Virus record (IMG/VR): IMGVR_UViG_2711768034_000011
Length of the DNA stretch: 8,060 nucleotides
Source: a virus
Lineage: Duplodnaviria > Heunggongvirae > Uroviricota > Caudoviricetes
Strand: one strand, 5' to 3'
Position numbers and translations under genes: made by a program. This document shows, piece after piece, positions 1-8,060 of this stretch. The notes under the pieces are model-generated. The model had not been told where the DNA came from and made no database searches. It saw nothing but the letters and a program-made list of their open reading frames with translations. Within the stretch, counting starts at the first letter, position 1, and each line of letters opens with the position of its first letter.

Positions 1-1254
1 ATGCTGGAACAAATGGGCATTGCCGCGAAGCAAGCCTCGTATAAATTAGCGCAACTCTCCAGCCGCGAAAAAAATCGCGTGCTGGAAAAAATCGCCGATG
101 AACTGGAAGCACAAAGCGAAATCATCCTCAACGCTAACGCCCAGGATGTTGCTGACGCGCGAGCCAATGGCCTTAGCGAAGCGATGCTTGACCGTCTGGC
201 ACTGACGCCCGCACGGCTGAAAGGCATTGCCGACGATGTACGTCAGGTGTGCAACCTCGCCGATCCGGTGGGGCAGGTAATCGATGGCGGCGTACTGGAC
301 AGCGGCCTGCGTCTTGAGCGTCGTCGCGTACCGCTGGGGGTTATTGGCGTGATTTATGAAGCGCGCCCGAACGTGACGGTTGATGTCGCTTCGCTGTGCC
401 TGAAAACCGGTAATGCGGTGATCCTGCGCGGTGGCAAAGAAACGTGTCGCACTAACGCTGCAACGGTGGCGGTGATTCAGGACGCCCTGAAATCCTGCGG
501 CTTACCGGCGGGTGCCGTGCAGGCGATTGATAATCCTGACCGTGCGCTGGTCAGTGAAATGCTGCGTATGGATAAATACATCGACATGCTGATCCCGCGT
601 GGTGGCGCTGGTTTGCATAAACTGTGCCGTGAACAGTCGACAATCCCGGTGATCACAGGTGGTATAGGCGTATGCCATATTTACGTTGATGAAAGTGTAG
701 AGATCGCTGAAGCATTAAAAGTGATCGTCAACGCGAAAACTCAGCGTCCGAGCACATGTAATACGGTTGAAACGTTGCTGGTGAATAAAAACATCGCCGA
801 TAGCTTCCTGCCCGCATTAAGCAAACAAATGGCGGAAAGCGGCGTGACATTACACGCAGATGCAGCTGCACTGGCGCAGTTGCAGGCAGGCCCTGCGAAG
901 GTGGTTGCTGTTAAAGCCGAAGAGTATGACGATGAGTTTCTGTCATTAGATTTGAACGTCAAAATCGTCAGCGATCTTGACGATGCCATCGCCCATATTC
1001 GTGAACACGGCACACAACACTCCGATGCGATCCTGACCCGCGATATGCGCAACGCCCAGCGTTTTGTTAACGAAGTGGATTCGTCCGCTGTTTACGTTAA
1101 CGCCTCTACGCGTTTTACCGACGGCGGCCAGTTTGGTCTGGGTGCGGAAGTGGCGGTAAGCACACAAAAACTCCACGCGCGTGGCCCAATGGGGCTGGAA
1201 GCACTGACCACTTACAAGTGGATCGGCATTGGTGATTACACCATTCGTGCGTAA
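1..1254 (+). CDS. proA: Gamma-glutamyl phosphate reductase (glutamate-5-semialdehyde dehydrogenase), complete 417 aa
   Basis: 417-aa ORF starting at window position 1; I recognise the sequence as enterobacterial ProA; location immediately upstream of thrW matches the known proBA-thrW arrangement (established knowledge). Confidence 0.95.
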
Positions 1255-1368
1255 ATAAAACCGGGTGATGCAAAAGTAGCCATTTGATTCACAAGGCCAT
1301 TGACGCATCGCCCGGTTAGTTTTAACCTTGTCCACCGTGATTCACGTTCGTGAACATGTCCTTTCAGG

Positions 1369-1444
1369 GCCGATATAGCTCAGTTGGTAGAGCAGCGCAT
1401 TCGTAATGCGAAGGTCGTAGGTTCGACTCCTATTATCGGCACCA
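1369..1444 (+). tRNA. thrW: tRNA-Thr (anticodon CGU), 76 nt with encoded CCA end
   Basis: Sequence GCCGATATAGCTCAGTTGGTAGAGCAGCGCATTCGTAATGCGAAGGTCGTAGGTTCGACTCCTATTATCGGCACCA; 7-bp acceptor stem GCCGATA/TATCGGC, D-loop and GTTCGACTCC T-arm motifs, anticodon CGT in the anticodon loop. A known phage integration target. Confidence 0.93.
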
Positions 1445-1458
1445 TTTAAATCAATAAG

Positions 1459-2622
1459 TTACACATCATTAGTACCTTCCTTATTTTTTGACTGGGACAA
1501 ATTTGGGACCGATGGGTTCAGGATCGAGTCTATTTGCCGTGCGTGTTCGGTAAGGTGATTAGGTGCGAGGTGAGCATATCGACGAACCATTTCGATAGAC
1601 TCCCAGCCTCCCATTTCCTGTAACACTGACAACGGGACACCGGCTTGAACCAGCCAACTTGCCCAGGTGTGTCTCAAGTCATGAAATCTGAAATCATCAA
1701 TACCAGCTCGTCTCAGCGCCGCTTTCCAGGCTGTGTTTGCGTCATACCGCATCTTCCTGACTGTTGGCGCTTTCGTTCCGTCTGGTTTGGTACAGCTTTC
1801 CTTGTACACAAATACCCAACGGTGATGATTCCCGATTTGTTTTTTCAATACGCGACATGCAGTATCATTCAGCGCAACGCCAATTGCGCGGTTTGATTTA
1901 CTCTCTTCCGGGTTTATCCATGCCACCCGGCGCTGCATGTCTATTTGTTGCCATTCAAGGTTGATGATGTTCGAGCGTCTTAAGCCTGTTGCCAGTGCAA
2001 ATTCAACAACAGACTTTAATGGCTCCGGACATTCATCAATCAGCCTTTGTGCTTCATGGGGCTCCAGCCAGCGGATCCGTTTATTCTTTGGTTGAGGCAC
2101 TTTAATAATTGGTGCCTTATCCAGCATTTTCCATTCACGCTCTGCGGCTCTTAGTAGGGCCTTTATAAATGAAAGATGCGTAGCCTTCGTTGCAACGGAC
2201 GCTGGTTTTGGCGTGTATTCTGGAACAGGTTTCCCTTTTTTTCTACATGCTTCTGCCCTGAGTTTCCAGTTTTCCTCATGACGCCGGTTCGTCATTTTCT
2301 GCATTGCTGAATAAATTTTTGATTCAGTAATGTCTCTTAGTTGCATTCCTGCGAAATGTTGAAGCCAGAATCCGATCCGGCTTTTGTCATCGTCCAGTGA
2401 TTTTTTATGTGCTTTCTCTTCGAGCCACCTGATACACGCCTCCTCGAACGTCATATCAGGTATTTCACCAAGTTTGCTGACCCGCCATGCTTCAGCCTTT
2501 AGCTTGTCATGGAGCTCTGTCGCCTGCCTTTTGTCCTTTGTTCCAAGAGACTGTTTAAATCTTTTACCGTTCGGCAATGTGAAACTGGCGTACCATATTT
2601 CACCTCTGCGGAAGAGTGACAT
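1459..2622 (-). CDS. int: Phage integrase, tyrosine recombinase, P22-type (387 aa)
   Basis: 387-aa ORF ending 14 nt from the tRNA 3' end; N-terminus [22 protein letters not shown] and C-terminal [13 protein letters not shown]...VRRYAHL catalytic boxes; SD-like AGAGGAAAG upstream of the ATG at 2622. P22 integrates at thrW (established knowledge). Confidence 0.93.
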
Positions 2623-2849
2623 TTTCTTTCCTCTGTTATGCCATCACCCGCGCTCACCTGGACAGTATGCAGCGGAGACTGAAGCGCCGCAATGCAGGCT
2701 TGTCGTGTTGTGAGGTAAGGAGATTTTAGTTTAGTGGGGTCTTTGCGTGTTGCCTGTAGGCGGCCTGTTCGTATCCAGTTGGTAGCGGTAGGTCTGGATA
2801 TCTTGAGAAACTGACAGGCCTCATCGAGTGTGAGGCTGTATGATTCCAT
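2499..2849 (-). CDS. xis: Excisionase / AlpA-like helix-turn-helix DNA-binding protein (116 aa from ATG at 2849; the listed ORF extends to a GTG at 2879)
   Basis: HTH-like segment [26 protein letters not shown]; AGAGGT SD 4 nt before the ATG at 2849; sits immediately upstream of int on the same strand. The 3' end overlaps the int 5' end by 124 nt in another frame; the 116-aa size matches my recollection of P22 Xis. Confidence 0.7.
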
Positions 2850-3099
2850 GGTTACCTCTGCTTTTTGAACGCATGTCACGTAACTTCTTAATGTGTTCTG
2901 CCGTTTCGATCTCTTCTGCTATCCGATCTGCATCAGCTTTATTCACAGGTTCAAAGTCATGATTAAAGCGGAACATGCTGGCGATACATGTTCCGCCTTT
3001 TCGGATGTAGTGAACTTTGTTGTGGGTAGAACGCAGGATTTTGCAGGGAGTGCCGTGGTGGTCGACGTACCAGGTGTTAGGAAAAATGATTCTGAACAT
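2821..3099 (-). CDS. Hypothetical phage protein, 92 aa, function unknown
   Basis: ORF with SD GAGGTG 5 nt upstream of the ATG at 3099; co-directional and tightly packed with neighbours (29-nt overlap with the xis start). I do not recognise the family. Confidence 0.6.
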   Translation of the reverse strand: MFRIIFPNTWYVDHHGTPCKILRSTHNKVHYIRKGGTCIASMFRFNHDFEPVNKADADRIAEEIETAEHIKKLRDMRSKSRGNHGIIQPHTR

Positions 3100-3146
3100 T
3101 TTTACACCTCAGTTGGACGATGTTGAAATTTGCTGCTTTGAGGCCA

Positions 3147-3365
3147 TCACAATCCCCATTGTTTGTTCTTAAGTTCGATCTCCTCCTGGCAACTTGCACA
3201 AGTCCGACAACCCTGAACGGCCAGGCGTCTTCGTTCATCTATGGGATCGCCACACTCACAACAATGAGTGGCAGATATAACCTGGTGGTTCAGACGACGC
3301 ATTTTTATTGCTGTATTGCGCTGTAATTCTTCGATTTCTGATGCTGAATCAATGATGTCTGCCAT
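3147..3365 (-). CDS. TraR/DksA-family C4 zinc-finger protein (72 aa), putative RNA polymerase-binding regulator
   Basis: Spacing C-x2-C-x17-C-x2-C (CCECGDPIDERRRLAVQGCRTCASC) typical of the DksA/TraR zinc finger; TraR-like proteins are common in lambdoid early-left operons (established knowledge). Confidence 0.8.
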   Translation of the reverse strand: MADIIDSASEIEELQRNTAIKMRRLNHQVISATHCCECGDPIDERRRLAVQGCRTCASCQEEIELKNKQWGL

Positions 3366-3371
3366 CTTCCA

Positions 3372-3467
3372 TTAATCCCTGAATTGTTGGTTAATACGCT
3401 TGAGGGTGAATGCGAATAATAAAAAAGGAGCCTGTAGCTCCCTGATGATTTTGCTTTTCATGTTCAT
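3372..3467 (-). CDS. Putative small ORF, 31 aa (MNMKSKIIRELQAPFLLFAFTLKRINQQFRD), not in the supplied ORF track
   Basis: First ATG overlaps the stop of the upstream 72-aa gene as ATGA; AAGGAG lies 8 nt before the in-frame second ATG; its TAA stop is 6 nt before the TraR-like ATG. It encloses a hairpin plus U-tract, so it may instead be a terminator or attenuator. Confidence 0.3.
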   Translation of the reverse strand: MNMKSKIIRELQAPFLLFAFTLKRINQQFRD

Positions 3468-3679
3468 CGCTCCTTAAAGACGCCGTTTAACATGCCGATC
3501 GCCAGGCTTAAATGAGTCGGTGTGAATCCCATCAGCGTTACCGTTTCGCGGTGCTTCTTCAGTACGCTACGGCAAATGTCATCGACGTTTTTATCCGGAA
3601 ACTGCTGTCTGGCTTTTTTGATTTCAGAATTAGCCTGACGGGCTATGCTGCGAAGGGCGTTTTCCTGCTGAGGTGTCAT
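3464..3679 (-). CDS. Hypothetical phage protein, 72 aa from ATG at 3679 (listed ORF extends to a TTG at 3778)
   Basis: ATG at 3679 overlaps the stop of the upstream 27-aa ORF (ATGA); its stop overlaps the start of the downstream small ORF (ATGA). Product MTPQQENALRSIARQANSEIKKARQQF... is not recognised. Confidence 0.55.
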   Translation of the reverse strand: MTPQQENALRSIARQANSEIKKARQQFPDKNVDDICRSVLKKHRETVTLMGFTPTHLSLAIGMLNGVFKER

Positions 3680-3759
3680 TGAACAAGTCCCATGTCGGCA
3701 AGCATAAGCACACAGAATATGAAGCCCGCTGCCAGAAAAATGCATTCCGTGGTTGTCAT
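3676..3759 (-). CDS. Putative small hydrophobic peptide, 27 aa (MTTTECIFLAAGFIFCVLMLADMGLVQ), not in the supplied ORF track
   Basis: Strong SD GGGAGG (3764-3769) 4 nt upstream of the ATG at 3759; ATG overlaps the methyltransferase stop (ATGA) and its TGA overlaps the next gene ATG (ATGA); hydrophobic core long enough for one membrane helix. Confidence 0.4.
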   Translation of the reverse strand: MTTTECIFLAAGFIFCVLMLADMGLVQ

Positions 3760-4313
3760 GCAGCCTCCCGACGGGCAAGAATCCTTGAGCCGAACGCCAT
3801 CAACTCTCCACGATCAACGGTCGTAAAGTGGCAGTGTGTACGGGGGTATGGGTGCCAGATAATGAGCATCGAGCCTTTATTATTTCCACTGACGGGTTTC
3901 TCAGTGAGTGGGTTAATAAATGCCAGTCGTCCTGCCGTGATGAATCTGACCTCACTGGCGGTTTGTATCGCTTCATGAAACCATCCGACAGATGTGTCAG
4001 CAGGCAATAACATTACACATCCCACACTACTGAATTTGTTTTCAGTGGCTGCCTTTTTCACAAAAGGGGAAATATTGCTGTATGGTGGATTCAACCAGAC
4101 ATAACCAGAGGCATATCCCATTGCTTCAGGCCATGAAGTGGTTAATGTGTTCTGCTCCTGTGAGATAAAAAGCCGACATAGTCGGTTTTTTTCGCTGGCT
4201 GCAGCATCAAGTTGAAAAACGAACTCTGCATTAAGCGCAGCAAAAATCTCTGGTGGTGTGCGCCAGCTGTCGCGATGTTCGGCAGGAGTATTGCTTCCGG
4301 TGAAATCAGTCAT
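3756..4313 (-). CDS. Phage-type DNA N6-adenine methyltransferase (185 aa)
   Basis: NPPY catalytic motif (WLNPPYSN) and N-terminal W-x-TPPEIF...LDAAAS pattern typical of the phage N-6-adenine methyltransferase family; no adjacent restriction endonuclease gene. Confidence 0.85.
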   Translation of the reverse strand: MTDFTGSNTPAEHRDSWRTPPEIFAALNAEFVFQLDAAASEKNRLCRLFISQEQNTLTTSWPEAMGYASGYVWLNPPYSNISPFVKKAATENKFSSVGCVMLLPADTSVGWFHEAIQTASEVRFITAGRLAFINPLTEKPVSGNNKGSMLIIWHPYPRTHCHFTTVDRGELMAFGSRILARREAA

Positions 4314-4369
4314 ACAGCCCCCCGTTTATTATTTATCTCCTCAGCCAGCCGCTGTGCTTTCAGTGGATT

Positions 4370-4403
4370 TCTGATAACAGAAAGGCCGGGAAATACCCAG
4401 CCT
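4370..4403 (-). terminator. Candidate intrinsic terminator between exo and the methyltransferase gene
   Basis: On the minus-strand transcript: AGGCUGGG-UAUUU-CCCGGCCU (8-bp stem including one G-U pair) followed by UUUCUGUUAUC, located 62 nt downstream of the exo stop. Confidence 0.4.
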
Positions 4404-4464
4404 CGCTTTGTAACGGAGTAGATGAAAGTGATCGCGCCTACCCGGATATTATCGCGAGGATGCT

Positions 4465-5145
4465 TCATCGCCATTGCTCCCCAAATACAAAACCAATTTC
4501 AGCCAGTGCCTCGTCCATTTTTTCGATGAACTCCGGCACCATCTCGTCAAAATTCGCCATGTACTTTTCATCCCGCTCAACCACGACATAATGCAGGCCT
4601 TCACGCTTCATGCGCGGGTCATAGTTGGCAAAGTACCAGGCATCTTTTCGCGTCACCCACATGCTGTACTGCACCTGGGCCATGTAAGCCGACTTTATGG
4701 CCTCGAAACCACCGAGCCGGAACTTCATGAAATCCCGGGAGGTAAACGGGCATTTCAGCTCAAGGCCATTGCCGTCACTGCATAAACCATCGGGAGAGCA
4801 GGCGGTACGCATACTTTCGTCGCGATAGATGATCGGGGATTCAATAACATTCACGCCGGAAGTGAACTCAAACAGGGTTCTGGCGTCGTTCTCGTACTGT
4901 TTTCCCCATGCCAGCGCCTTAGCATTAACTTCCGTAGCCACACCGGTGCAAACCTCAGCCAGCAGGGTGTGGAAGTAGGACATTTTCATGTCAGGCCACT
5001 TCTTTCCGGAGCGGGGTTTTGCTATCACGTTGTGAACTTCTGAAGCGGTGATGACGCCGAGCCGTAATTTGTGCCACGCATCATCCCCTTGTTCGACAGC
5101 TCTCACATCGATCCCGGTACGCTGCAGGATAATGTCCGGTGTCAT
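4465..5145 (-). CDS. exo: Lambda-type exonuclease (Red alpha), 226 aa
   Basis: Near-identical to the phage lambda Exo sequence as I recall it ([40 protein letters not shown]...); 4-nt ATGA overlap with bet as in lambda. Confidence 0.95.
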
Positions 5146-5927
5146 GCAGCCACCTTCTGTTCAGAGGCTTTCTGTTTCAGGAATCCAAGAGCTTTCACTG
5201 CTTCGGCCTGTGTCAGTTCCGACGATGCGCGAATGTCGCGGCGAAATATCTGGGAACAGAGCGGCAATAAGTCGTCATCCCATGTTTTGTCCAGGGCAAT
5301 CAGCAGAGTGTTAATCTCCTGCATGGTTTCATCGTTAACCGGAGTGATGTCGCGTTCCGGCTGACGTTCTGCAGTGTATGCGGTATTTTCGACAATGCGC
5401 TCGGCTTCATCCTTGTCATAGATACCAGCAAATCCGAAGGCGAGACGGGCACACTGAATCATGGCTTTATGCCGTAACATCCGTTTAGGATGCGACTGCC
5501 ACGGCCCCGTGATTTCTCTGCCTTCACGGGTTTTGAATGGTTCGCGGCGGCATTCATCCATCCACTCGGTAACGCAGATCGGATGATTACGGTCCTTGCG
5601 GTAAATCCGGCATGTACAGGATTCATTGTCCTGCTCAAAGTCCATGCCATCAAACTGCTGGTTTTCATTGATGATGCGGGACCAGCCATCAACGCCCACC
5701 ACCGGAACGATGCCGTTCTGCTTATCAGGGAAGGCGTAAATTTCTTTCGTCCACGGATTAAGGCCGTACTGGTTGGCGACGATCAACAATGCGATGAACT
5801 GCGCATCGCTGGCATCACCTTTAAATGCCGTCTGGCGAAGAGTGGTGATCAGTTCCTGTGGGTCGACAGAATCCATGCCGACACGTTCAGCCAGCTTCCC
5901 TGCCAGCGTTGCGAGTGCTGTACTCAT
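5142..5927 (-). CDS. bet: Lambda-type single-strand annealing protein Bet (Red beta), 261 aa
   Basis: Near-identical to lambda Bet as recalled ([66 protein letters not shown]...). Confidence 0.95.
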
Positions 5928-5932
5928 CCGTT

Positions 5933-6229
5933 TTATACCTCTGAATCAATATCAACTTGGTGGTGAGCAATGGTTTCAACCATGTACCGGATGTGTTCTG
6001 CCATGCGCTCCTGAAACTCAACATCGTCATCAAACGCACGGGTAATGGCTTTTTTGCTGGCCCCGTGGCGTTGCAAATGATCGATGCATAGCGATTCAAA
6101 CAGGTGCTGGGGCAGGCCTTTTTCCATGTCGTCTGCCAGTTCTGCCTCTTTCTCTTCACGGGCGATCTGCTGGTAGTGACGCGCCCAGCTCTGAGCCTCA
6201 AGACGATCCTGAATGTAATAAGCGTTCAT
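5933..6229 (-). CDS. gam: Lambda-type Gam (RecBCD inhibitor), short 98-aa form only
   Basis: [21 protein letters not shown]... matches lambda GamS; AGGAG SD 7 nt upstream. The GamL-type N-terminal extension starts at an ATG at 6350 but is out of frame here (see findings). Confidence 0.93.
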
Positions 6230-6304
6230 GGCTGAACTCCTGAAAATGGCTGTGAAAATAGCGCCCGCGAAATGCCAGGCTGATTAGGAAAACAGGAAAG
6301 GGGG

Positions 6305-6448
6305 TTAGTGAATGCTTTTGCTTGATCTCAGTTTCAGCATTAATATACATTTTTTATAAGCGTCGACGGCTTCACGAAACATCTTTTCATCGCCAATAAA
6401 AGTGGCGATAGTGAATTTAGTCTGGATAGCCATAAGTGTTTGATCCAT
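6305..6448 (-). CDS. kil: Lambda-type Kil (host cell-division inhibitor), 47 aa
   Basis: [33 protein letters not shown]...[10 protein letters not shown] matches lambda Kil as recalled; AGGAG SD upstream. The listed 89-aa ORF 6305..6574 is this gene with a spurious upstream extension. Confidence 0.85.
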
Positions 6449-6581
6449 TTTTTGGGACTCCTGGCTGATTAAGTATGTCGATAAGGCGTTTCCATCCGTC
6501 ACGTAATTTACGGGTGATTCGTTCAAGTAAAGATTCGGAAGGGCAGCCAGCAACAGGCCACCCTGCAATGGCATATTGCAT
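6417..6581 (-). CDS. cIII: Lambda-type CIII (FtsH/HflB inhibitor), 54 aa
   Basis: Below the ORF-track length cutoff. Manual translation of the minus strand from the ATG at 6581 gives MQYAIAGWPVAGCP... and ends ...[15 protein letters not shown] with TAA at 6417-6419; AAGGAG SD 7 nt upstream; 32-nt overlap with kil as in lambda. Confidence 0.85.
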   Translation of the reverse strand: MQYAIAGWPVAGCPSESLLERITRKLRDGWKRLIDILNQPGVPKNGSNTYGYPD

Positions 6582-6653
6582 GGTGTGCTCCTTATTTATA
6601 CATAACGAAAAACGCCTCGAGTGAAGCGTTATTGGTATGCGGTAACGCCGCGC

Positions 6654-7022
6654 TCAGGCGGCTTTGATAGTCATATCATCTGAATCAAATATTCCTGATG
6701 TATCGATATCGGTAATTCTTATTCCTTCGCTACCATCCATTGTAGGCCATCCTTCCTGACCATTTCCATCATTCCAGTCGAACTCACACACAACACCATA
6801 TGCATTTAAGTCGCTTGAAATTGCTATAAGCAGAGCATGTTGCGCCAGCATGATTAATACAGCATTTAATACAGAGCCGTGTTTATTGAGTCGGTATTCA
6901 GAGTCTGACCAGAAATTATTAATCTTGTGAAGTTTTTCCTCTGTCATTAAGTCATGGTCGATTTCAATTTCTATTGATGCTTTCCAGTCGTAATCAATGA
7001 TGTATTTTTTGATGTTTGACAT
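6654..7022 (-). CDS. ea10: Lambda-type Ea10 (Ssb-like early protein), 122 aa
   Basis: MSNIKKYIIDYDWKASIEIEIDHD... matches lambda Ea10 as recalled. Confidence 0.9.
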   Translation of the reverse strand: MSNIKKYIIDYDWKASIEIEIDHDLMTEEKLHKINNFWSDSEYRLNKHGSVLNAVLIMLAQHALLIAISSDLNAYGVVCEFDWNDGNGQEGWPTMDGSEGIRITDIDTSGIFDSDDMTIKAA

Positions 7023-7129
7023 CTGTTCATATCCTCACAGAAAAAAATCGCCCTCACATTAGAGGTCAAAGAAGATTTCCAATAATCAGAACAAGTCGGC
7101 TCCTGTTTAGTTACGAGCGACATTGCTCC

Positions 7130-7157
7130 GTGTATTCACTCGTTGGAATGAATACAC
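7130..7157. repeat. Perfect 9-bp inverted repeat GTGTATTCA / TGAATACAC with a 10-nt spacer
   Basis: Read directly from the sequence, in the intergenic region between the AT-rich ORF and ea10. Confidence 0.6.
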
Positions 7158-7181
7158 AGTGCAGTGTTTATTCTTTTGTTT

Positions 7182-7211
7182 GCGTGAAAATGAAACCCGC
7201 CTGAGCGGGTT
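7182..7211 (-). terminator. Candidate intrinsic terminator overlapping the stop of the AT-rich ORF
   Basis: Stem AACCCGC / GCGGGTT (7 bp, loop CTGA) at 7194-7211; on the minus transcript followed by UCAUUUUCACGC; on the plus strand followed by a T5 run 8 nt away, so possibly bidirectional. Confidence 0.35.
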
Positions 7212-7763
7212 ATGACCACTTTTTGTTTGGATTTCGTTGGTGAGCGTGGTTTACAGGATTATTTGATATACCCCATAACTCTGACTCGCTTATCTCTACA
7301 CGAGAGAAAGACCTGCTTTCTTTCAGTTCTTTTATAAACCTAGAACCTACGATGACATCTATTGTCCCAGAAAGTTCTTGTAAAAGATCTTTGTTTTTTC
7401 TGAGGAAGAAAACATCTTCTTTATATTTAATTTTTACATAGAATTTATTCTGTATTTTTAATATATCAAAGCATGGCAGATATCTATATCCCTCATGCTT
7501 TCGCCACTGCTTAACAATTATAACATCTCTTTCATTTACTGCATTAATCAGCCCAAGACCAAGTATAGGTATGAATATTCTATTGTCTGCCGAAAGCGTA
7601 CAATTATCACCACCAGGCAAATATGTATAAATCATGTCGGAATTTTTATACGCATCAACGAATGCACGTAAGAATCGTACATATTTTTGCCATCCGTTTA
7701 TACCAAATTTACCATATAAGTATTCTTTATTTGTTAGAAGAAAACTATTTGTATCAGGAGCCT
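7210..7763 (-). pseudogene. AT-rich orphan ORF of unknown function, probably 5'-truncated by IS1 (at least 183 codons of open frame; first ATG at 7635 gives 141 aa)
   Basis: Markedly lower GC than the flanking lambda-like genes; the frame stays open for 42 sense codons upstream of the ATG at 7635 right up to the IS1 junction, with no in-frame ATG/GTG/TTG and no SD before 7635. Confidence 0.5.
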
Positions 7764-8060
7764 GGTAATGACTCCAACTTATTGATAGTGTTTTATGTTC
7801 AGATAATGCCCGATGACTTTGTCATGCAGCTCCACCGATTTTGAGAACGACAGCGACTTCCGTCCCAGCCGTGCCAGGTGCTGCCTCAGATTCAGGTTAT
7901 GCCGCTCAATTCGCTGCGTATATCGCTTGCTGATTACGTGCAGCTTTCCCTTCAGGCGGGATTCATACAGCGGCCAGCCATCCGTCATCCATATCACCAC
8001 GTCAAAGGGTGACAGCAGGCTCATAAGACGCCCCAGCGTCGCCATAGTGCGCTCACCGAA
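7764..8060 (-). mobile_element. IS1, partial (right inverted-repeat end, 297 of about 768 bp; continues beyond the window)
   Basis: Begins with the IS1 terminal inverted repeat GGTAATGACTCCAACTTATTGAT at 7764 and contains the insB 3' coding region on the minus strand. Confidence 0.95.
7779..8060 (-). CDS. insB: IS1 transposase InsB, 3' portion (5' end lies beyond the window)
   Basis: Translation ...[93 protein letters not shown] matches IS1 InsB as recalled. Confidence 0.9.

Follow-up and report, generated by a model that had tools for sequence, protein, structure and literature searches.

We think it probable that an open reading frame abutting an IS1 element in the prophage DNA studied here (the window, a stretch of 8,060 nucleotides) is a pseudogene fragment, and that the intact protein from which it derives is a targeted transcription-arrest factor with a new kind of targeting domain. 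Nun is a textbook phage protein that halts RNA polymerase by means of a peptide wedged in the elongation complex, and to our knowledge it has so far been seen with only one address label, an arginine-rich RNA-binding motif. IS1 inserted into codon 106 of a 289-codon early gene and left its 3' two-thirds in the window; in intact lambdoid prophages of the 434 type the gene is co-transcribed with N from pL and ends at the first terminator. The intact protein has four parts: a basic N-terminal helical hairpin (residues ~13–65), a core (~70–220) predicted to fold like the WED/REC lobe of TnpB/Cas12 and lacking the RuvC/zinc-finger nuclease, a helix with the conserved motif ESxSFxRVEIS, and a probably flexible C-terminal tail identical to the arrest peptide of HK022 Nun. 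We propose that the N-terminal and WED/REC-like module recognizes, on a particular transcription unit, a nucleic-acid signal that could be a structure in the nascent RNA or a motif in the DNA. The tail would then thread into the elongation complex between the β' rudder/lid, the RNA–DNA hybrid and the DNA, as that of Nun does, and the threaded tail would block translocation. Such a protein could serve as an exclusion or regulatory arrest factor whose targeting domain is other than the arginine-rich motif of Nun.

The proposal can be tested directly, since phage 434, rpoC alleles that confer resistance to Nun, and assays of Nun activity are all available. If confirmed, the protein would represent a new class of factor for phage–phage exclusion or for the control of early transcription, and nature would have supplied a compact design for arresting transcription at a target. 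The copy in the window, a recent casualty of IS1, matters less.

An early gene interrupted by IS1

The features of the window are collected in Table 1. The tRNA-Thr(CGU) gene stands directly beside the 387-aa integrase gene, after proA, and the prophage is therefore located at the thrW site. Other thrW prophages match the window at ~98–99% over positions 1–7181 and then diverge. Beyond that boundary lies the open reading frame, which is free of stop codons on the minus strand from 7761 to 7213 (184 codons by translation) and closes with a TAA at 7210–7212; a reading of the sequence without database searches (the sequence-only reading) had correctly described it as open from the IS1 junction at 7763. 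That reading had also called the gene AT-rich and foreign in composition, as the G+C content bears out (0.332 for 7210–7763 versus 0.521 for exo-bet-gam; the values are 0.377 for ea10 and 0.525 for the IS1 part). It is a real gene fragment rather than a chance open reading frame, because its 184 residues match the C-terminal portion of a protein of 289 aa, itself conserved, at 100% identity. The stop codon overlaps an intrinsic terminator, which a terminator scan placed at 7211–7194 plus a T-run; a terminator after the gene is also annotated in phages 434 and HK75.

Table 1. Features of the window, with positions counted from its first letter
Feature	Position	Strand	Remarks
proA	1–1254		left part of the window, before the prophage
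tRNA-Thr(CGU)	1369–1444	+	directly adjoins integrase, after proA
integrase, 387 aa	1459–2622	-	lambdoid prophage
adenine methyltransferase		-	listed between integrase and exo
exo	4465–5145	-
bet	5142–5927	-
gam	5933–6229	-
kil/cIII		-	listed between gam and ea10
ea10	6654–7022	-
HK75-shared segment	7050–7255	-	nun 3' end and terminator region, ~94% DNA identity; megablast against phages
intrinsic terminator	7184–7211	-	AACCCGCTCAGGCGGGTT + TCATTTT; terminator scan; overlaps TAA; equivalent of tL1
IS1-truncated open reading frame	7210–7763	-	last two bases of codon 106, codons 107–289, TAA
putative Nun-type RNA-polymerase arrest tail	7213–7254	-	codons 276–289, VNHAHQRNPNKKWS; identity with PDB 6ALG_N
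conserved motif ESRSFSRVEIS	7288–7320	-	codons 254–264; alignments A4 and A7
predicted TnpB-like WED/REC core, surviving part	7420–7761	-	codons 107–220
IS1 target-site duplication copy, 9 bp	7755–7763	-	AGGCTCCTG; gene nt 317–325; junction comparison
IS1 right end, partial	7764–8060	-	C-terminus of InsB and terminal repeat read directly

The right end of IS1 (GGTAATGACTCCAAC...) begins at 7764, and the window stops inside the element, of which 7764–8060 is 100% identical to an annotated IS1A copy. The insB gene has the same direction as the open reading frame, and the transposase thus reads towards it. Alignment with intact copies of the gene (see below) places the break exactly at 7763/7764, inside codon K106; the letters at the junction are CATTACC/AGGCTCCTGAT in the window versus GTAGATA/AGGCTCCTGAT in the intact gene. 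Truncation by IS1, which had been suspected from the window itself, is confirmed by this alignment, and the 9-bp target duplication that was expected of such an insertion, AGGCTCCTG, is present at both reciprocal junctions. The second of these, ...GATAAGGCTCCTG/GGTGATGCTGCC with the duplicated nonamer, occurs in four short public contigs (L010–L013). An exhaustive protein search had returned a 107-aa product that ends in ...SVDKAPG at a stop codon and whose contigs end in ...GATAAGGCTCCTG/GGTGATGCTGCCAACTTACTG, the left end of IS1 following the same nine bases. Public data thus contain both of the junctions that a simple insertion of IS1, with duplication of its target, would create.

Among public sequences, the expectation that the missing 5' part would be found beyond IS1 was borne out only in part. 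In L010–L013 gene sequence does lie on the far side, the surviving part being limited to codons 51–108 (nt 152–325). In nine complete genomes that have the identical right junction in an argU-site prophage remnant, by contrast, cusS or an IS3 element is found across IS1.

Two other rearrangements of the region came to light. In L010 (positions 1002–1148) the 5' stump upstream of codon 51 has been replaced by unrelated sequence, a second rearrangement of the same gene. A 96-aa protein (P0017), a chimera of the first 23 residues of Bet and the last 73 of the long Nun-tailed protein, shows that the region has been rearranged in yet another way in some genome.

The intact gene and its place beside N

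The product had been taken for an unrecognizable orphan, a description that no longer holds: phage 434 carries an intact copy (gp48), and the C-terminus is that of the arrest peptide of HK022 Nun. The intact gene (870 bp) encodes a protein of 289 aa that is found as 434 gp48, as E. coli WP_001569075 and in phrog_12139, which the intact protein matches at E=5e-204 and whose PHROG function class is unknown. The window's open reading frame is 100% identical to residues 106–289 of an E. coli allele (L002:4685–5554) and 97% identical to the phage 434 protein, and the 714 bases from 7050 to 7763 are present in phage 434 at 97–100% identity. Of 5426 complete E. coli genomes, 89 contain 80% or more of this 3' segment, whether whole or truncated, and the family is represented in phage 434 and ~1–2% of complete E. 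coli genomes. By homology searching we collected 12 complete members, whose sources are E. coli, Hafnia and metagenomes and whose identities go down to 42%; a Pectobacterium sequence additional to this 12-member alignment is truncated at its C-terminus.

Neither Pfam nor NCBIfam gave anything meaningful for the protein, the fragment or 32 members of the wider superfamily, and PADLOC had no family below E=0.02 for the protein or any of the 32. GenBank labels gp48 a “Nun C-terminal peptide-containing protein,” and the announcement of the phage 434 genome does not discuss it. Our literature search found no experiment or publication on the family, its conservation or its TnpB-like core. The resemblance to the Nun tail is thus already on record in one GenBank annotation, and the combination of a TnpB-like lobe with a Nun tail is undescribed in the literature searched.

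The gene occupies a constant place. In phage 434, E. coli, L014 (Hafnia) and two further loci (L007 and L015) the intact gene starts 1–8 nt after an N-type gene; in 434 and the intact E. coli prophage the start lies 8 nt past the N stop codon, and a terminator stands just before ea10. The family genes in L007, L008 and L014 likewise end at a terminator. In L008 the gene directly follows the repressor/pL region, in the position of nun, and there is no N gene. It is thus a partner that N has kept across these phages, carried on the immediate-early transcript from pL. The proposal that it sits in an early-left cargo slot holds as regards the slot, which is the N-to-ea10 interval and has intact homologues in phage 434 and an E. 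coli prophage; cargo, however, is too general a term for a conserved partner of N.

The region between repressor and long gene in L008 (2801–3111) contains no N open reading frame and forms a 310-nt leader with a G+C-rich, possibly structured stretch at ~2940–3060. This stretch could represent an antitermination RNA of the put kind; an Rfam search of the leader found no family.

Like the long gene, HK022/HK75 nun occupies the first- or second-gene slot of the leftward early operon and is followed by the same terminator region; unlike nun, the long gene in most phages follows N rather than replacing it. With lambda N the relationship is that of a neighboring, co-transcribed gene. N and Nun both combine a targeting element with a C-terminal segment that enters RNA polymerase, but N, a short, disordered arginine-rich-motif protein, suppresses termination, and we found no sequence similarity between it and the long protein.

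That it serves in exclusion is a reasonable guess. The pL promoter is under repressor control in the annotated 434 map, and since the operon is repressed in a lysogen, exclusion from the prophage in the manner of HK022 Nun is not assured. Phage 434 and L007 have a lambda-like N and boxA/boxB, and the target therefore cannot simply be a lambda-type nut site. Because its gene shares a transcript with N and precedes the first terminator, the protein may instead act at an early stage of infection or induction, with competitors, the host or transcripts of the phage itself as targets, and not from the prophage. The same considerations bear on a different account of its role, in which the protein and the chemistry of its tail would be as we propose and the protein would be a regulator of its own phage's early transcription, a brake or timer on N-modified polymerase, or a means of shutting off host or co-infecting-phage transcription, and not an exclusion factor expressed from a prophage. 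Repression of pL, the lambda-like N and box sequences of 434 and L007, and the tight, apparently translationally coupled pairing with N before the first terminator in five lineages all speak for such a role; against it, the L008 gene fills the nun slot of a phage that lacks N, the tandem arrangement of the long gene and a classical short Nun in L007 suggests an arsenal for exclusion, and relatives with another tail travel as integron-type cassettes amid defense-like genes (see below). We hold this account to be rather unlikely, though it is the rival to be taken most seriously.

The predicted core and the Nun-type tail

The targeting function that we assign to the protein would reside in its N-terminal 220 residues. 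Its structure was modeled with AF2 from an alignment of 13 sequences (an earlier model from four sequences had a pLDDT of 47 and was discarded). The model has a pLDDT of ~90 for residues 10–220 and below 50 for 222–289, and comprises two N-terminal helices, a strand (72–77), three helices (80–145), a β-sheet (152–220), a long helix and the tail. Missing from the window copy are the N-terminal helical hairpin (13–65), the first β-strand (72–77) and the first REC-like helix (80–102). The predicted core has the fold of a WED/REC N-terminal lobe. Foldseek ranked Cas12f, dCas12f and Cas12p first in the PDB (E 0.055–0.15) and a mimivirus TnpB-like transposase first in BFVD (E=2.9e-3), with nothing at E<=0.001 in either; a fold comparison of the predicted core also named LaTranC, Fanzor2, Cas12g, dCas12f and others, with which Foldseek agrees in ranking and not in significance. 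We also compared the core by hhalign with profiles of TnpB N-lobes, built at first from three sequences and then from 11 (the ISDra2 N-lobe, its sequence confirmed against 8H1J, nine phage-borne TnpB N-lobes and ISFba1). The alignment is collinear (140 columns for A9) and pairs the first strand and P-x-x-x-Q helix, the “IyfP..LG” strand and the “g.yy..i” hairpin, at P=0.0078–0.013 and a probability of 2–5%. In all, the profile and structure searches of the intact protein that had been envisaged delivered phrog_12139, the Nun tail and a TnpB-like fold, but nothing significant for the core.

From the predicted model, a similarity in fold between the core and the TnpB/Cas12 lobe is probable, and common descent with TnpB is plausible. 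The contrary reading is that the resemblance is an artefact of modeling and searching, or convergence, and that the core is an unrelated new α/β domain, possibly one that binds protein, in which case the Nun tail alone would connect the protein with anything described. The statistics just given favor that reading in that neither the Foldseek E-values nor the hhalign probabilities are significant; TM-scores are ~0.2, HMMER searches of Pfam, NCBIfam and PDB sequences gave no TnpB match (against the PDB, single sequences and a superfamily profile found only the Nun tail), and the alignment behind the model is shallow, a first model from still fewer sequences having been poor. We regard an artefact or convergence as rather unlikely.

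The core, if TnpB-like, differs from TnpB/Cas12 and from the TldR and dCas12f-σE derivatives in that the whole RuvC and zinc-finger (TNB) half is gone, not just the catalytic residues. The Pfam families OrfB_IS605 and OrfB_Zn_ribbon did not match, the RuvC D-E-D residues and TNB zinc finger are absent, and only ~70 residues, made up of a helix, the motif and the tail, follow the core. Unlike TnpB/Cas12, moreover, the family has no evident guide RNA and no significant sequence similarity to those proteins: the downstream regions of five loci have only the tail-coding sequence and the terminator in common and present no candidate guide or partner RNA, and Rfam returned no RNA family at the loci examined. 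No described TnpB derivative carries an RNA polymerase-arrest peptide (PMC10691335 and our literature searches). If confirmed, this would be a new re-use of TnpB-type scaffolds, in which the nuclease half was lost and a polymerase-arrest tail gained.

The last 14 residues of the protein are identical to residues 96–109 of HK022 Nun (PDB 6ALG chain N), and phrog_5632 (Nun) matches residues 270–289 at E=4e-5. Similarity to HK022/HK75 Nun extends over ~28 residues, and none was found outside them. In other respects the proteins differ: the long protein has 289 aa versus 109–112 aa and belongs to a separate PHROG (12139 versus 5632); it has no detectable arginine-rich boxB-binding motif, its N-terminus being a Lys-rich helix; and it has a structured N-terminal part of 220 residues with the predicted TnpB-like core. 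One stretch, SERKKHKKEAEKLANY, was considered as a lambda-N-like arginine-rich motif and dropped, because the aromatic residue is not conserved in P0003–P0005 and the position is Cys in other members.

In a cryo-EM structure, residues 87–109 of Nun are found within the elongation complex, the C-terminal carboxylate is paired with R102, and K106, K107 and W108 touch the DNA and a pocket of β' (PMC5386594). Nun without its last 13 residues is inactive, and the residues implicated in contacts to RNA polymerase, RNA or DNA, or in activity, are N97, H98, H100, R102, K106, K107 and W108 (PMC5386594). All seven fall on invariant columns of the 12-member alignment, in which V-N-H-A-H-x-R-x-x-x-K-K-W is present in 12 of 12 complete members, down to 42% identity, with the V, N, H, A, H, R, K, K and W columns each invariant. 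The set of contact residues from N97 to W108 is thus kept in full; the upstream-DNA contacts H93 and R94, unlike in HK022 Nun, are not conserved in the long family. We infer that the tail would bind RNA polymerase as Nun's does. It is a low-confidence region of the AF2 model and is probably flexible.

Could the tail be a functionless scar, left when the nun 3' end and terminator were joined by recombination to an unrelated gene? E. coli does bear the mark of a recent exchange with a nun 3' end of the HK75 type: the ~94% DNA identity to HK75 (7043–7255 by blastn; megablast query positions 509–714) covers the last ~15 codons through the terminator, with mosaic boundaries at 7255 and at 7181, the latter being the end of homology to other proA/thrW prophages. 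This exchange, however, accounts only for the E. coli/HK75 pair: in members that are 42–49% identical (Hafnia, Pectobacterium, metagenomes) the tail is invariant at key positions while its codons have diverged. Among five divergent loci, pN/pS in the tail is 0.078, the lowest in the protein, with synonymous sites saturated (pS 0.94), versus 0.35–0.48 in the rest of the protein. With synonymous sites saturated and pN/pS nonetheless so low, the tail is under stronger constraint than any other part of the protein and is more than a scar of recombination; we consider the scar highly improbable. The ESxSFxRVEIS motif has a pN/pS of 0.10 and is shared by distant relatives as S-x-x-Y-S-R-V-D-F.

An exhaustive profile search identified these relatives as ~20 further proteins of 213–326 aa and one of 473 aa (P0019–P0039). 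They have in common with the long family only the core (profile positions ~73–225) and the S-x-x-Y-S-R-V-D-F motif; they differ in lacking the N-terminal hairpin and in ending in another conserved tail, ...GGLPSLGK(R/K)R, and at least P0034 moves as an integron-type cassette and not in a prophage early operon. A peptide-profile search showed the Nun tail itself on many short proteins of Enterobacterales whose N-termini are diverse and often rich in arginine, and the same arrest peptide therefore sits both on many different short N-termini and on a 220-residue domain. These sequences show the Nun tail to be a portable effector module, because it is carried by the many short proteins with arginine-rich N-termini and by a short Nun in tandem with the long gene in L007. 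The tails thus act like modules that deliver the effect, and the N-terminal parts like address modules that can be exchanged; our literature search found neither tail described as a module.

An extension of this idea, which we offer tentatively and think unlikely to hold in all its parts, is that the long family descends from TnpB with loss of RuvC and uses its recognition lobe, which would read a DNA motif or an RNA, perhaps with an RNA partner, to deliver to chosen sites a Nun-type peptide that jams RNA polymerase, and that GGLPSLGK(R/K)R is a second effector peptide directed at the same or another host machine. If this is true, the classical phage 434 would encode a natural, targeted “transcription-arrest warhead.”

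Several observations on individual loci belong here. The short Nun-type gene of L007 (7037–7345, plus strand; 102 aa) lies ~160 nt downstream of the long gene and combines an arginine-rich motif (KGRRRALRMQQRRD) with the tail HKVVNHAHQRRPNKKWS; a terminator of its own follows, and the source annotation does not call it as a gene. In L015, a 92-aa Cys/His-rich open reading frame (7874–8152, plus strand; phrog_20899) comes right after the long gene and before a terminator, and ends in ...LRGGLPSLGKKR, the alternative tail seen in the distant relatives. Relatives of its N-terminal part occur in Klebsiella phage phiKp_30, and the match there is ~160 nt upstream of the conserved region found ahead of ea10 in the window. 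Many open reading frames of 37–81 aa with a Nun tail (P0055–P0068) occur in Proteus, Providencia, Photorhabdus, Serratia and Raoultella under the NCBI name “transcriptional regulator,” and several of them appear to be short Nun genes that were called from a wrong start or in truncated form.

P0034, whose tail is GGLPSLGKRR, is encoded in three unrelated contexts (L017 1399–2269, L018 2494–3365 and L019 697–1563) by a cassette of ~870 bp that is 99.6–100% identical among them. GTTAGTC/GTTATGC cores lie at its edges, followed by imperfect palindromes of the form TAAC...GTTA, and the contigs consist of gene arrays in one direction with a methyltransferase, an HNH protein and other defense-island-like genes. 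Judged from sequence, the arrangement is that of an integron gene cassette, with palindromes such as attC sites have; Rfam gave no attC match at these loci.

Fate of the truncated copy

The truncated gene had been thought probably inactive, with no credible start at its first ATG (7635), and we agree on both counts. The ATG is preceded by GCGTATAAAAATTCCGAC, which contains no Shine-Dalgarno-like sequence, and intact homologues start 148 codons further upstream; the NCBI pipeline nevertheless annotates a 141-aa open reading frame from this ATG elsewhere (hypothetical protein WP_024167976.1). Promoter-like matches near the open reading frame are no commoner than in shuffled sequence. Having lost pL, N, the start codon and 105 codons, including those for the first strand and first helix of the core, the window copy is most likely an inactive remnant. 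Its 184 residues are undecayed, with no substitution relative to residues 106–289 of WP_001569075, and the IS1 insertion is therefore recent. Continued expression, for example from ATG 7635 by read-through from IS1, of a 141-aa untargeted tail carrier with some activity would suit the direction in which IS1 reads, the undecayed state of the fragment and the persistence of the identical junction, annotated as a CDS, in nine complete genomes, but the lack of start and promoter signals and of the core's first elements speaks against it, as does the absence of divergence, which suggests a recent event and not upkeep by selection, and we give it very little credence.

The block from exo to IS1 (4439–8060), with the identical IS1 junction, is 98–99% common to the window and to L004, L005 and L006, which are argU-site prophage remnants beside cusS, found in nine complete E. 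coli genomes. The thrW arrangement of the window, on the other hand, was found in none of 5426 complete E. coli genomes, and together these facts suggest that the block has moved among prophages by recombination. In one related remnant, that of strain S1-INA-02-B (L004 8134–8919), bet has an internal stop codon, which is consistent with ongoing decay of such prophage remnants.
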